From Candidatus Thorarchaeota archaeon (lineage in GTDB: Archaea > Asgardarchaeota > Thorarchaeia > Thorarchaeales > Thorarchaeaceae), in NCBI GenBank assembly GCA_048884785.1, contig JBHLQM010000006.1:16038-80037 (forward strand): a stretch of 64,000 nucleotides of DNA. Direction: 5' to 3'. This document shows positions 12,153 through 31,997 of this stretch, one piece after another. The notes under the pieces are model-generated. The model was given only the letters and a program-made list of their open reading frames with translations, was not told the origin of the DNA and ran no database searches. Made by a program: the position numbers and the translations under genes. Position 1 is the first letter of the stretch, and each line of letters begins with the position of its first letter.

Positions 12153-13304
12153 CTAATATGCCCGATATTTCACTCCAGAAGCTGTATTGAGAATGACAAC
12201 TTCCTCATCACCATCTATTTGTCCTGACTCAACAAGGTTTCCTAGACCTGCAAGACCTACAGCAGTTTCAGGACAGACATCCAAGCCTTCCAGTTTACCA
12301 GCTAGACTCATTATGTGCGGAATCTCGTGTTCTGCCACGGCAACAGCACCTCCTCCTGACTGCTTTAATGCACCCATAATAAGTCTGTCCGCAAATGGTT
12401 TTGGCACTCTTAATCCATATGCCTGAGTCGAACTATTTTTCCAAGGCTCAATTGAATCTGCCCCGGTTTCATATGCTCTTACGACCGGAGCGCAGCCCTC
12501 ACTCTGCGCTGCGTAAAGTCTCGGACGTTCGCTTCCAATCAGACCAATACCCTCGAGTTCATCTAATCCCTTCCAAATACCGATAATTGCAGTGCCACCC
12601 CCAGTAGGGCAGACAATTACATCAGGTATCGTCCATCCGAGTTGCTCCACAATTTCAAAAGCCAAGGTTTTCTTGCCCTCCACCCTGTATGGTTCCTTGG
12701 TTGTGGAGAGATCCATCCAATTCCCATTCTGTTTTTTCATAGTCGAGGCGCTATCAGAAAGAGTACCGGATGTGGATACAGTTAATGCTCCATACAAGTG
12801 ACAATCATCAAAGAACATCTTTGGGGTATCTTCTGGCATGAATATGTTCACTGGTACACCTGCAGCAGCTGAATAGGCACTTGCTGATACAGCAGCGTTT
12901 CCAGCTGACGGAAGTGCAAAGGCAGTGGCTCCAAGTTCCAGATTCTTAGAAATTGCACAGCAGATGCCTCTATCCTTGAAGCTTAATGTTGGATTCCTTG
13001 ATTCATCCTTTATGCGAAGCATTTTCAGTCCAATATGAGTGCCGAAGCGCCTAGTTAATACCAAGGGGCTCCATCCTTCACCTAGGCTCGTGACAAAAGA
13101 TGGTGAGTTTACGGGTAGCAGCATCGAGTATCTCCACATAGAATTAACTTCGGTTGGGAATTCATTACATTCAATTGCATCAATAACCGGACCAAGATTG
13201 TATTTTGCCAGTAGAGGCGAGCCACAAATACAGAATGTGGCAAGTCGCTCCGCAGAATACACCTTAAGACACTGAGGACACTCAAGATGTGAGATAGCCG
13301 ACAT
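12153..13304 (-). CDS. thrC: Threonine synthase family PLP enzyme
   Basis: N-terminal CxxC..CxC, LGEGWSPL, NPTLSFKDRG, SAGNA, EGKKT and PTGGG; start at MSAISH with GAGGT RBS. Confidence 0.85.
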   Translation of the reverse strand: MSAISHLECPQCLKVYSAERLATFCICGSPLLAKYNLGPVIDAIECNEFPTEVNSMWRYSMLLPVNSPSFVTSLGEGWSPLVLTRRFGTHIGLKMLRIKDESRNPTLSFKDRGICCAISKNLELGATAFALPSAGNAAVSASAYSAAAGVPVNIFMPEDTPKMFFDDCHLYGALTVSTSGTLSDSASTMKKQNGNWMDLSTTKEPYRVEGKKTLAFEIVEQLGWTIPDVIVCPTGGGTAIIGIWKGLDELEGIGLIGSERPRLYAAQSEGCAPVVRAYETGADSIEPWKNSSTQAYGLRVPKPFADRLIMGALKQSGGGAVAVAEHEIPHIMSLAGKLEGLDVCPETAVGLAGLGNLVESGQIDGDEEVVILNTASGVKYRAY

Positions 13305-13384
13305 CAATTTTAGAACCTCTTTTACGTGAACACGTACCATTATATTTGTGTACATGTTATCGATGAAGCAGAGGATAGCCACCA

Positions 13385-14584
13385 ATGGTACAGCTAAAGA
13401 GAATGGTTCTCCCATTCACTGCATTAGTAGGATTGGAGCGACTTAAACTAGCTCTAATCTTAAACGGAGTTAATCCTCGTATTGGTGGTCTACTAGTTTC
13501 AGGTCCAAAAGGCACTGGGAAGACGACACTTGTTAGAGCTTTTGCAGAGCTGCTACCTGAAATTGAAGTAGTCGAAGGCTGCCGATTTGGATGTAATCCT
13601 CGAAATCTGGAAACCCTTTGTGAGGAATGCAACAAGCGCATCGAATCAGGAGAGAAGCTCCCCATCCTATCTGGAAAAATGAGAGTTGTCAATCTTCCAC
13701 TTTCAACAACAGAGGATCGATTAATTGGTTCGCTGGATCTTGAGAGAGTGCTGAAAGATGGAATTCAAGCGCTAAGGCCTGGCATCCTTGCAGAAGCTCA
13801 CCAGAACATTCTCTATGTTGATGAAGTGAATTTGCTGCCAGATCATCTTGTAGACGATCTTCTTGATGCTGCAGCAACAAAGGTCAATGTAATTGAACGT
13901 GAAGGCATCTCTATTTCACATTCATCAGATTTTGTGTTGATGGGTTCTATGAATCCCGAGGAAGGTGAATTGCGTCCCCAGCTACTCGATAGATTTCCTC
14001 TTCATGTATCAGTTGGGTCCAATTACTCGATAGAGGACAGGATGGAGCTCGTTCGGCGGAATCTGGATTTTGAGAACTCTCCGTATGAGTTCATGGAAAA
14101 ATGGGAAAAAGAACAAAGTGATTTGAGGCAGCAAATCATTTCGGCGAGAATGCTACTTCCAGAAGTTGAATTATCAGAAACTCAGCTTCGAGCAATAGCT
14201 ATGGCCACAGATGCTCTTGAAGTGGATGGCGTTCGCCCTGACATAATAATCAGCAAGGCATCGGTCACACTTGCAGCATTCTTTGGTAGAAAAAGTGTAG
14301 AACTTGAAGATATGCAGTTGGCTGCCCAATTGACTATGAGCCACAGAACGCGTCGTGGAGGACTTTTGGAACCTCCCTCACAGAATGAAATCAATGAATC
14401 CATTTCAAAGGCACATGATGTTGCACAAAAACAAGACCGAAGAAAATCTCCCACTGAAGTAGGCGAAGAATCAGGAGAGAAGACTTCAGGAGAACGAAGA
14501 AGTGGCGGTAAATTCGGACGGCAAGGATCCTTTGCAGATATGAGTATGGGTGAGGAAGGCAAAAAAAAACGCCGACAAGAATAA
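13385..14584 (+). CDS. Magnesium/cobalt chelatase subunit I-like AAA+ ATPase (frame-0 product)
   Basis: PFTALVG, GPKGTGKTT, TEDRLIGSLD, LYVDEVNLL and MNPEEGELRPQLLDRF motifs. Confidence 0.9.
   Translation: MVQLKRMVLPFTALVGLERLKLALILNGVNPRIGGLLVSGPKGTGKTTLVRAFAELLPEIEVVEGCRFGCNPRNLETLCEECNKRIESGEKLPILSGKMRVVNLPLSTTEDRLIGSLDLERVLKDGIQALRPGILAEAHQNILYVDEVNLLPDHLVDDLLDAAATKVNVIEREGISISHSSDFVLMGSMNPEEGELRPQLLDRFPLHVSVGSNYSIEDRMELVRRNLDFENSPYEFMEKWEKEQSDLRQQIISARMLLPEVELSETQLRAIAMATDALEVDGVRPDIIISKASVTLAAFFGRKSVELEDMQLAAQLTMSHRTRRGGLLEPPSQNEINESISKAHDVAQKQDRRKSPTEVGEESGEKTSGERRSGGKFGRQGSFADMSMGEEGKKKRRQE
14561..14570 (+). other. Putative -1 frameshift / transcriptional slippage site (A9C)
   Basis: AAAAAAAAAC just before the frame-0 stop; the -1 frame is open from here into the vWA ORF; hairpin CCACGA...TCGTGG at 14590-14612. 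Confidence 0.7.
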
Positions 14585-14628
14585 GAAATCCACGAGGTGA
14601 TGCCATTCGTGGTACTATCTGTGCTATC

Positions 14629-16065
14629 ATGATGATGGTAGTCTTTGCCTATTTTGCTTGGTTGGCAATCAGTCCAGTGAATGTCTTATTTGGATATCCT
14701 CTTGGAGTATATCCACCTTCAATAGAACTCGCAATAATAAACACGATACTGTATATCCCTCTCATTTACTCGGCTGTGAAGAGATGGCTAAGAACCATGT
14801 TGAAGAGACAGAGAGGTCCTGCAGCAGGAATTGACACCGTTGAGCCTGGATACGCCGAACCCGAACCCGGTGATGAATGGGGCCGCGCAACGAGACCATA
14901 TCGCGCCAGAAGCGAAACAAAGACAACCGGTTCGAAATCTGATCTACGAGATGCCGCACTTGCTATTGACTCTGCATTCTTTGTAAAACTACCTGACCTC
15001 GAAACTGGAGAGTATCTATTCCAACCGGGCGATTTGAAGGCAAAGGCCATGATAAGATCCCGTGTATCTTCCGGCGGATGGAAGAATAAGAGAACAAGTA
15101 CAAGAGCTGCTGGCTCAGTCAAGGCATCAGAATCTCTTAAGACCGGACGAGCATCTCGATGGCGTCAGCCTGTAGGAGATGTTTCCTCAATACATTTACC
15201 TTCTACAATTATGTCCGCAATTTCAAGAATTGGAAAATTTTCGAAAGGTGAAATAATTCAGATTAAGAAAGAGGACATTAGGGAGAAGGTCTATACAGGG
15301 AGAACGCCCTTGACTATCATCTTGGTTGTTGATGTTAGTCTATCAATGAAAGGAAGCCTGAAAGCTGTAAGGACTATAATGGACAGGATAGAGAGAGAAA
15401 CGCGAGGCTCCAAGGACAGGATTGGCATTATTGCTTTCAAAGATACTGGCGCAATCGAGGTTCAGGCCCCAACAACGAATTGGAACAAGATTTACCGTGC
15501 TCTCGGGAGACTTCGTATTTCTGGTCTAACTCCGCTTGCTGAAGGTCTTATGAAAGCTCTCGAAGCCATTAAGCGAGAAAGAATGCGAAATCGAGACATT
15601 GAGCCATTAGTTATAGTAATCTCAGACTTTGCGCCAAATATTCCATTGGCACAATCCGTGGGGCCTGGACATGCACAATACACCCCCATAAAGGATCTTG
15701 TAAAAGCATCTCGATTACTTCGAAAGCAGGATGTGAGATTAGCTGCAATAAGTGTGGATCGTGAACATAGAAAATGGTCTAAGTTCATGAAAAGGCCCTA
15801 TCATGAAGCATTGGAACTTGCAACTCTCCTTCGGATGAGAAAAGAGGGTTATTCTGATATTATCGAAACAATTCTTGGTGTGAACGATTTTCGTCAAAAC
15901 TTCGGGGCGTTCCTTATCGCACGTACCAGTGGAGGTCACGCGTATCTGGCAGAGGAGCTGGAGCGGGAAAGGTCAATGATCAACACGATTCTCAATGCCA
16001 GTCGGTCAAAGGCACGTATGAGTATTCACCGACTACGAGAATTGGAATCTTATCTGGAAACGTAG
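14629..16065 (+). CDS. ChlD-like C-terminal half: 2 TM helices plus vWA (MIDAS) domain, likely a trans-frame continuation of 13385
   Basis: IHLPSTIMSA...EDIREK linker typical of ChlD; DVSLSM, GLTPLAEGL and ISD MIDAS residues. Confidence 0.8.
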   Translation: MMMVVFAYFAWLAISPVNVLFGYPLGVYPPSIELAIINTILYIPLIYSAVKRWLRTMLKRQRGPAAGIDTVEPGYAEPEPGDEWGRATRPYRARSETKTTGSKSDLRDAALAIDSAFFVKLPDLETGEYLFQPGDLKAKAMIRSRVSSGGWKNKRTSTRAAGSVKASESLKTGRASRWRQPVGDVSSIHLPSTIMSAISRIGKFSKGEIIQIKKEDIREKVYTGRTPLTIILVVDVSLSMKGSLKAVRTIMDRIERETRGSKDRIGIIAFKDTGAIEVQAPTTNWNKIYRALGRLRISGLTPLAEGLMKALEAIKRERMRNRDIEPLVIVISDFAPNIPLAQSVGPGHAQYTPIKDLVKASRLLRKQDVRLAAISVDREHRKWSKFMKRPYHEALELATLLRMRKEGYSDIIETILGVNDFRQNFGAFLIARTSGGHAYLAEELERERSMINTILNASRSKARMSIHRLRELESYLET

Positions 16066-16249: not shown

Positions 16250-17260
16250 TTGAAACCTGGAAAAATCCCTCCTTCCATTCTGGAATCGGTTGTCTTCAAA
16301 TATCTTGGAAGCAACCATCCAAATCTAATTCTTGGTCCTTCTATTGGGCAAGATGCATCACTCATCAAGATGGGAGATAGAATTCTGGTTGCCTCAACGG
16401 ATCCCATTACAGGTTCAATCGAAGATGTTGGTTGGTTGTCTGTTCACATCAATGCGAATGACATAGCAACCTTTGGTGTCGAACCTCAGTGGTTTCTAAA
16501 TTCTATAATGCTCCCTCCTGACTCAGGACCCAGTGAATTAGAGAGGATAATGAAGCAAATACAGGAGGCTGCTGCATCATTAAATATTGTTGTGGCAGGG
16601 GGTCATACTGAAATTACGGAAGGGATTGAAAATCCAATTATTGCAGGATTCATGCTTGGAGAAACAAGAGAGGGCTCCTATGTCACTTCTGCAGGTGCTC
16701 AACCTGGAGATGCCATAGTAATGACAAAGACTGCAGCAATTGAAGGTACCGCGATTTTAGCTGCGGAAGGTTATGATTTTTTGGTGCAAGTGCTTGGAAA
16801 AAGTGTAGTTGACCAAGCAAGAGAACTTCGAAAGAATATAAGCGTAGTAAGAGAAGGTGTTACTGCATTCAAAACAGGATATCTTACTGCAATGCATGAC
16901 CCGACCGAGGGCGGTATTGCAAATGGTATCCACGAGCTCTGCGATGCAAGCCATGTAGGCTGTCTCATCTATCCAAACTTGATACCCGTACATTCTGCAA
17001 CCAAATCGATTTGTGAATCCCTAAAGATTGACCATCTTCAATTAATTAGTAGCGGCAGTATGCTTCTAACATGCAGAAAGGCGCACTCAAATGAAGTTCT
17101 CAAGGCTCTTGCATCTGTGAGTATTCCTGCTGTAGTCATTGGTGAAACACTTAAAGATCCTCAAGACAGATTAATTGAATCAACGCAAGGGAAGACGGAG
17201 CTAGTGCGGCCAGAATCAGATGCACTGTGGACTGCGCTCCATAGATTTACTCGTTCATGA
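16250..17260 (+). CDS. AIR synthase-related (PurM/HypE-like) protein
   Basis: GK..., IGQDA, STDPIT, NANDIA, GGHTE and MHDPTEGG motifs. Confidence 0.85.
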   Translation: MKPGKIPPSILESVVFKYLGSNHPNLILGPSIGQDASLIKMGDRILVASTDPITGSIEDVGWLSVHINANDIATFGVEPQWFLNSIMLPPDSGPSELERIMKQIQEAAASLNIVVAGGHTEITEGIENPIIAGFMLGETREGSYVTSAGAQPGDAIVMTKTAAIEGTAILAAEGYDFLVQVLGKSVVDQARELRKNISVVREGVTAFKTGYLTAMHDPTEGGIANGIHELCDASHVGCLIYPNLIPVHSATKSICESLKIDHLQLISSGSMLLTCRKAHSNEVLKALASVSIPAVVIGETLKDPQDRLIESTQGKTELVRPESDALWTALHRFTRS

Positions 17261-31508: not shown

Positions 31509-31997
31509 TTACTTCGGGGTCTCTATTGAATATCTTCTTGGTGTCAATCCGATTTGTCTAAACCCATTCTCTACATTCCGAATGGGATTCTTCTCTCCCA
31601 CATATCGAAGGACGTGAGTTGAACAGGATTCCTGGCAATCAGATGATCCAAATCCTCTTGGTCCCCATTGAAAGGGGCCTACATCAGCAAGAGACCTGAT
31701 TAATATGCATTCCTTCTTTCCATTAGATTCAGCCCAGATTGCCTCCTTGGAGGAGATTTCATCAGACAGAAGGTGATCAATGTGCCAGTGAATTTTCTTT
31801 TTTTTTCTGAAATGACGACGTAATCTATTTTCTAGATTTGTTGAGCCCAATCCCTGCGCGGATCCAATATAGATCCAATAGCCAGATGTAAATTCGAAAG
31901 CTCTACCGGATTCTAGCAGGATTTTAACATCTCTCCTGAGATGGACGATTAAGGCATAGACGCCCCTCATTTCAGCATTCACTCCTGCAGGATTCAT
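31509..31997 (-). CDS. DUF123 / GIY-YIG (Uri) nuclease-family protein
   Basis: GVYALI, YIGSA, RLRRH, HWHIDHL and GFGSSDC...C..H motifs. Confidence 0.88.
   Translation of the reverse strand: MNPAGVNAEMRGVYALIVHLRRDVKILLESGRAFEFTSGYWIYIGSAQGLGSTNLENRLRRHFRKKKKIHWHIDHLLSDEISSKEAIWAESNGKKECILIRSLADVGPFQWGPRGFGSSDCQESCSTHVLRYVGEKNPIRNVENGFRQIGLTPRRYSIETPK

Follow-up and report, generated by a model that had tools for sequence, protein, structure and literature searches.

Poly-A recoding as the likely link between a ChlI-type ATPase and a membrane-anchored vWA protein in Thorarchaeota

Two neighbouring open reading frames (ORFs) in a Candidatus Thorarchaeota genome, annotated as 'Mg chelatase subunit I' (ORF1) and 'VWA domain protein' (ORF2), raise the question of whether they are two genes or the two halves of a single one. 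They lie in a stretch of 64,000 nucleotides (assembly GCA_048884785.1, contig JBHLQM010000006.1, positions 16,038 to 80,037 of the forward strand), hereafter called the window, whose own numbering is used throughout. An earlier note, made from the letters of the window, had proposed that the AAA+ ORF and the vWA ORF are joined by a -1 shift at a run of nine adenines (A9). The core of this proposal is supported here by the coordinates and frames, the conservation of the run and of the offset, the coding character of the linker, the existence of in-frame variants, and the collinearity of homologues. To judge from sequence, it is highly probable that ORF1 and ORF2 constitute one recoded chlD-like gene, which would give rise to a short ATPase and a long, membrane-anchored AAA+/vWA form.

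The anatomy of the frames leaves little room for the position of the shift. ORF1 ends with GGC AAA AAA AAA CGC CGA CAA GAA TAA, the stop being at 14582-14584. ORF2 lies in the frame of ORF1 minus 1, and this frame is open from 14554, right after a TGA at 14551-14553, up to 16065. As the two frames are open together only at 14554-14584, the shift must fall there, and the A9 run lies inside this overlap (Table 1). Standard decoding would stop at 14582-14584 and release a soluble ChlI-type AAA+ ATPase of 399 amino acids. A one-base backward slip at the A9 run would lead into the -1 frame and yield a long product of 893 amino acids. The slip could take place on the ribosome, as a -1 frameshift at A_AAA_AAA, or could result from the insertion of one extra A into the transcript by RNA polymerase.

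The run as a statistical oddity of the window was considered and rejected, as two A9 runs are observed where 2.35 are expected from shuffles. Hence, the A9 run by itself is ordinary in the window, and the signal is a comparative one, that is, the recurrence of the run together with the -1 offset. The other A9 run of the window is found at 31798-31806 on the reverse strand. Within the 3.6-Mb genome there are 46 A/T runs of at least eight, 10 of which lie inside uninterrupted long open frames, and the ORF1/ORF2 junction is the sole frame transition between two long open frames among those 46.

A search of relatives gave 53 loci, 40 of them with distinct junction sequences, drawn from many independent studies, assemblies and assemblers (L-numbers denote loci, P0001 is one in-frame homologue, and f-numbers denote families, with f1 being Thorarchaeota). 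Conservation in orthologues, on which the earlier note had made its proposal depend, was borne out, since a run is present in the 40 distinct junctions (A9 in 30, A10 in six, A11 in three and A7 in one) and ORF2 keeps the -1 offset in about 36 of them. The A10 and A11 variants preserve the offset by means of altered flanking bases. In five lineages, the TAA at which the -1 frame opens belongs to the A run itself, so that the possible shift window measures only 13-22 nt. The zero-frame tail consists of KKK and four further codons, and the position of its stop is fixed across the junctions. Likewise, the three Lys codons of the Thorarchaeota site are always AAA AAA AAA, while AAA and AAG are used 71 and 62 times, respectively, in the genes of the window. 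The orthologues of ORF1 and of ORF2 are 55-81% identical, and both halves are under purifying selection.

The exceptional junctions are informative as well. L033 has an interrupted first run (GGGAAAAAGAAAC) and, 14 nt downstream and just before the stop, a second one, an A7 in CCA AAA AAA TAA. Both the first and the second runs are present in L012, and the pattern of these two loci implies that the slip site has been relocated and not lost. Two other loci depart from the common arrangement. In L028, owing to the loss of one base just upstream of the run, ORF1 enters the A9 run in a frame that needs a +1 shift, and in L034 the ORF1 match is in another frame, further upstream. These oddities may be either assembly errors or real variants.

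The stretch between the run and the annotated start of ORF2 evolves as coding sequence. From the run to the ATG, the -1 frame reads KKTPxxIRNPRGDPIKGTICA(I/V)MM in nearly all genomes. Across the 40 junctions, the 18 codons that precede the ATG show a pairwise nucleotide diversity by codon position of 0.241, 0.149 and 0.569, and differing codon pairs in the ORF2 frame are synonymous or non-synonymous in the ratio 5666:4145; the other two frames give 981:8210 and 420:8429, with 43 and 46 stops. No ATG, GTG or TTG occurs within these 18 codons in 27 of the 40 junctions, a Shine-Dalgarno (SD)-like 4-mer ahead of the ORF2 ATG was seen in none of 39, and the hydrophobic window of membrane helix 1 begins five codons upstream of the annotated ATG at 14629. 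The codon-position pattern, the scarcity of starts, the lack of an SD motif and the helix that precedes the ATG together imply that the stretch is protein-coding and that only a shift within the A run, or immediately after it, gives access to it.

Homologues in other Asgard families point in the same direction. These families hold uninterrupted homologues of 850-900 amino acids, with about 40% identity along 97% of the length; besides L019, L045 and P0001, some 27 in-frame Asgard proteins were counted as fused homologues. They are collinear over the shift site, where the Thorarchaeota Q-E-G-K-K-K-T-P is matched by Q-D-G-E-R-F/H-x-G. A dnaX-like slip site within these in-frame relatives was also considered, as L054 and L056 carry an A8 or A7 at EA(Q/R)KK, immediately past the AAA lid, and meet a -1 stop after another 1-4 codons. 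It was rejected, for the run is not kept in 19 further loci of family f12 and L068 reads AAG AAG AAA. The Lys-rich patch of f12, EA(K/R)KK, which precedes the aligned position of the Thorarchaeota run by about 45 residues, mixes AAA with AAG without any conserved run; being rejected as a slip site, it was used as a control for the Thorarchaeota site.

Several observations weigh against a single recoded gene, and they are taken up here along with the explanations that they would favour. In all 40 junctions, one or the other of two neighbouring codons where membrane helix 1 starts is an ATG, and ORF2 orthologues are publicly annotated as separate VWA domain-containing proteins. Both points would suit two separate genes, a ChlI-like ATPase and a transmembrane vWA protein that starts at ATG 14629, perhaps by re-initiation 44 nt past the ORF1 stop, the A run having no decoding role. 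This arrangement is nonetheless very unlikely, given the coding evolution of the codons ahead of that ATG and their frequent lack of any start codon, a first membrane helix that starts before it, the missing SD-like motif, the collinearity of in-frame homologues across the site, and the three Lys codons that are invariably AAA.

The naturally fused variants bear on two further explanations. In three lineages one extra A fuses the ORFs in frame, as in L019 (A10, 888 amino acids), L045 (A10) and P0001 (A11; its relatives have A10), and the sister genomes L044 (A9) and L045 (A10), the latter with a contig coverage of 67x, differ only in run length. The in-frame A10 variants could reflect length variation at the DNA level. 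Replication slippage in the A tract would then toggle the locus between a split state that makes only the short form and a fused state that makes only the long one, with no recoding by the ribosome or at the RNA level. Such phase variation is judged highly improbable, because the split -1 state predominates (about 36 of 40) instead of the junctions being spread over the three frames, and because the linker is under coding selection in genomes with a split consensus, in which the long form must therefore be regularly translated. It is extremely improbable that the junction reflects an error in the sequencing or assembly of the homopolymer, or a pseudogene in decay, with an uninterrupted fused chlD-like ORF as the true form. 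The three fused examples, one of them on the 67x contig, and the odd +1 arrangement of L028 speak for such an origin, but the offset is shared across many studies and assemblers and is retained by A10 and A11 runs through different flanks, the zero-frame stop stays in place, both halves remain under purifying selection at the identities given above, and no other gene of the genome is broken at an A/T run.

The remaining points concern the short product and the stimulation of the slip. Each f12 genome yields a single match, which is the fused protein without a separate short subunit. Family f12 thus makes do without a short form, which is therefore no universal requirement. As for stimulation, the RNAalifold consensus for conserved downstream RNA structure was empty at four window sizes with 39 sequences, and the single-sequence minimum free energy z-scores had a mean of -0.19 with none below -2. 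Hence, a classical stimulated -1 frameshift is unsupported.

The single recoded gene remains the preferred reading. The hairpin that the earlier note had placed downstream does exist in the sequence, as a 6-bp stem CCACGA/TCGTGG at 14590-14612, but it was rejected as a stimulator because it is specific to this genome and lies 20 nt from the run. A gap of 20 nt exceeds the usual spacers. The GAGGA noted upstream is likewise present, at 14552-14556, and 30 of 40 junctions have an SD-like 4-mer in the 18 nt ahead of the run, mostly as AGGA at -8; such a motif may be a stimulator or may simply reflect the conserved Gln/Glu-Glu/Asp-Gly codons, from which it is inseparable. Transcriptional slippage at A9 runs is known from Thermus dnaX and from insertion sequence (IS) elements. 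The long runs, the tolerance of one-A changes and the absence of a stimulator fit transcriptional slippage at the Thorarchaeota site, and the A7 site of L033 fits ribosomal frameshifting. In E. coli reporters of chelatase poly-A sites, A11 gave 63%, A9 gave 40% and A7 gave 10% (PMC3711429). The tau/gamma system of E. coli dnaX similarly obtains two products that share an N-terminal ATPase module from one gene by means of an A-rich slip. However, the slip shortens the dnaX product and would lengthen that of Thorarchaeota, and dnaX uses an upstream SD and a downstream hairpin, neither of which is supported here. Programmed transcriptional slippage, if this is what takes place, would to our knowledge be the first in Asgard archaea.

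Table 1. Features of the ORF1/ORF2 locus, in window coordinates
Feature	Position	Strand	Remarks
ORF1	13385..14584	+	Zero-frame product, 399 aa, ChlI/BchI-type AAA+ ATPase
Walker A, GPKGTGKT	13502-13525	+	Intact
4-Cys cluster, C-x3-C-x8-C-x2-C	13580-13630 (ORF1 aa 66-82)	+	Within AAA+ module
Walker B, ILYVDEVN	13808-13831	+	Intact
Overlap, both ORF1 and -1 frames open	14554..14584	+	31 nt; from the stop-to-stop ORF list
A9 slip site (candidate)	14561..14569	+	Zero frame AAA AAA AAA; includes A_AAA_AAA heptamer
Linker in -1 frame	14569..14628	+	20 codons, TPTRIRNPRGDAIRGTICAI; without start codon; readable only after the shift
Junction residues of predicted long form			...GKKKTPTRIRNPRG...
Membrane helix 1 (predicted)	14614..14670	+	TICAIMMMVVFAYFAWLAI; Kyte-Doolittle 2.31, 19-residue window
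ORF2 as annotated	14629..16065	+	478 aa; ATG at 14629; ChlD-type C-terminal half
Membrane helix 2 (predicted)	14722..14778	+	IELAIINTILYIPLIYSAV, then basic KRWLRTMLKRQRG; Kyte-Doolittle 1.76, 19-residue window
vWA domain	~15316-15768 (ORF2 aa 230-380)	+	Pfam VWA_2 4.4e-13
MIDAS DVSLS	15331-15345 (ORF2 aa 235-239)	+	

The predicted long product comprises, in order, an AAA+ module, a two-helix membrane hairpin, a linker and a vWA domain, with the features collected in Table 1. Among solved structures, ORF1 matches ChlI (6l8d, E 3.4e-94) and BchI (1g8p, 6.1e-82), and the best solved match of ORF2 is BchD (2x31_A). On TIGR02030, ORF1 scores 376 bits under a cut-off of 466.95. On TIGR02442, a model of the fused 'putative cobaltochelatase' of which the two ORFs match different parts, with a cut-off of 779.45, ORF1 reaches 444.5 bits (positions 2-354) and ORF2 105.9 bits (positions 399-617, 1.9e-30), and on TIGR02031, with a cut-off of 499.55, they reach 243.3 and 58.4 bits. 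As both ORFs stay under the curated cut-offs, they are homologues and not equivalogs. In alignment A1 the Walker motifs, four Cys residues and the D..S..S..T..D of the metal ion-dependent adhesion site (MIDAS; D646, S648, S650, T712, D744) are invariant. The four Cys (C67, C71, C80 and C83 of L019) are invariant in 29 Asgard homologues, and the cluster may be a zinc-binding insert.

The two hydrophobic helices that the earlier note had placed between the AAA+ and vWA domains were recovered both as hydropathy peaks (2.31 and 1.76) and in an AlphaFold2 model, computed for the natural in-frame orthologue L019 from 29 aligned sequences, with a mean pLDDT (predicted local distance difference test) of 66. 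In this model the AAA+ module is confident, and its top structural matches are BchI/ChlI, with target TM-scores of 0.82-0.91 and 43-45% identity in the structural alignment. It is followed by a disordered segment (356-403), long helices at 404-432 and 443-472 (pLDDT about 46-70) that correspond to membrane helices 1 and 2, a disordered linker, and a vWA domain modelled with confidence. The hairpin has basic residues on either side, and its loop is without K or R. By the positive-inside rule, the AAA+ and vWA domains would both face the cytoplasm. The linker between the hairpin and the vWA domain is acidic and proline-rich. The long form would thus consist of the same AAA+ module as the short one, a membrane hairpin with both ends cytoplasmic, this linker, and a ChlD-type vWA with an intact MIDAS.

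Membrane helix 1 is conserved both in Thorarchaeota and among further Asgard homologues. Hydrophobic linkers are found in Thorarchaeota (f1), in f12 and f8, in f10 (four or more helices), and in two of three f15 genomes; the linkers of f19, f9, f5, f7, f4 and f17, and those of Bathyarchaeia homologues of about 800 amino acids, are soluble. For example, L092 (G033, f10) is an in-frame homologue of 900 amino acids with four or more hydrophobic linker segments rather than two.

The recoding of single chlD genes at poly-A sites, which the earlier note had brought in as known, has indeed been published with reporter tests, and the -1 cases include archaeal members from Methanocaldococcus and Methanococcus (Antonov et al., 2013, NAR; PMC3711429). 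Frameshifted chlD genes also occur in hosts without chlH or cobN, where their function was left unassigned (Kuznetsov, Milenkin and Antonov, 2022; PMC9227772); the words 'membrane' and 'transmembrane' do not occur in the text of that paper, which cites a further study on frameshifted chlD genes (Antonov, 2020, MBE). A literature search on Asgard archaea and programmed ribosomal frameshifting found nothing relevant. The Thorarchaeota locus shares with the published genes a ChlI-type ORF and, after it in the -1 frame, a vWA ORF, a short overlap, a poly-A site at the domain boundary, short and long subunits from one gene (predicted for Thorarchaeota), and the existence of fused in-frame homologues. 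It differs from them in its Asgard (Thorarchaeota) host, in the two-helix hairpin between AAA+ and vWA, and in that a search for a conserved downstream RNA stimulator found none. The locus thus adds a lineage and a variant in architecture (membrane anchor, no large subunit found) to the published frameshifted chlD, and no new mechanism.

The statement of the earlier note that the window holds no ChlH/CobN gene can be widened. No match to CobN/ChlH (PF02514) was found in the window's own genome, which is 91% complete, nor in 46 genomes of the family (20 being of high quality), and the positive controls did match. This is therefore not a complete class I chelatase (ChlIDH or CobNST). Mg-chelatase ChlI/BchI and ChlD/BchD (6l8d, 8osf, 1g8p, 2x31) resemble the Thorarchaeota products in the AAA+ module, in the segment before the vWA domain (Pfam AAPxQ in relatives), and in the vWA domain that bears a MIDAS. 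The differences are the large subunit, found in none of the 46 genomes, the membrane hairpin in the linker, and the scores below the TIGR02030, TIGR02031 and TIGR02442 cut-offs. Moreover, the AAA+ of the long form would be identical to that of the short form and hence not degenerate, in contrast to Mg-chelatase.

A motor can nevertheless be envisaged. By analogy with the I/D motor of Mg-chelatase, the identical AAA+ modules of the short and long forms would bring the two together in a membrane-tethered ATPase, whose vWA domains would grip a client other than a CobN/ChlH subunit. In MoxR-vWA systems (RavA-ViaA, NorQ-NorD, CoxD-CoxE), an AAA+ ring acts with a MIDAS-vWA adaptor on a client that is often a membrane or metal-centre enzyme. 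They offer a working model for an I/D-type motor without the H subunit, although by sequence the Thorarchaeota proteins belong with ChlI/ChlD: PF20030 (bpMoxR), with a cut-off of 27, gives 21.6 bits, far less than the ChlI models. It is plausible that the motor remodels a membrane target. More tentatively, the Thorarchaeota I/D-type pair may be no chelatase at all but a membrane-tethered AAA+/vWA motor for remodelling or maturation, common to several Asgard lineages. Slippage at the A run, possibly by RNA polymerase, would then set the ratio of soluble to anchored form, and the client might be a membrane protein or a membrane-bound metalloenzyme.

The neighbourhood of the gene was considered as well. 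A PurM-superfamily gene at 16250-17260 (+) scores 112 bits with HypE and 90.8 bits with ThiL, both under the cut-offs. A gene of this superfamily is found downstream of ORF2 in all the Thorarchaeota loci. Its Pfam domains (AIRS, AIRS_C) recur in an f12 gene that adjoins ThiN and lies 3.4 kb from the chlD-like gene, and hence the PurM gene is probably ThiL. A functional link between the chlD-like gene and the PurM gene was set aside, as the whole region is syntenic and the AIRS gene stands at that distance in f12. On the other side, the longest ORF for threonine synthase, 12153-13415 (-), overlaps the start of ORF1. Its family match begins at amino acid 38, and hence its true start is probably the Met near 13307, which would leave about 77 nt for a divergent promoter region. 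Ahead of ORF1, this region contains a TTATAT box (about 13341-13346) and a GAGGA (about 13371-13375).

A single recoded gene would correct the annotation, by which 'Mg chelatase subunit I' and 'VWA domain protein' now stand as two entries, and would extend a published recoding device to the Asgard archaea. In several Asgard families the ChlD-type subunit appears to be membrane-anchored, with no ChlH/CobN found. Asgard hosts are thus suited to the question raised by the frameshifted chlD genes of hosts that lack chlH and cobN, namely what role ChlI/ChlD motors play without the large subunit (PMC9227772). Likewise, the Thorarchaeota site, with no evident RNA stimulator and with natural A9, A10 and A11 forms, would offer a clean case for weighing transcriptional slippage against ribosomal frameshifting in archaea.

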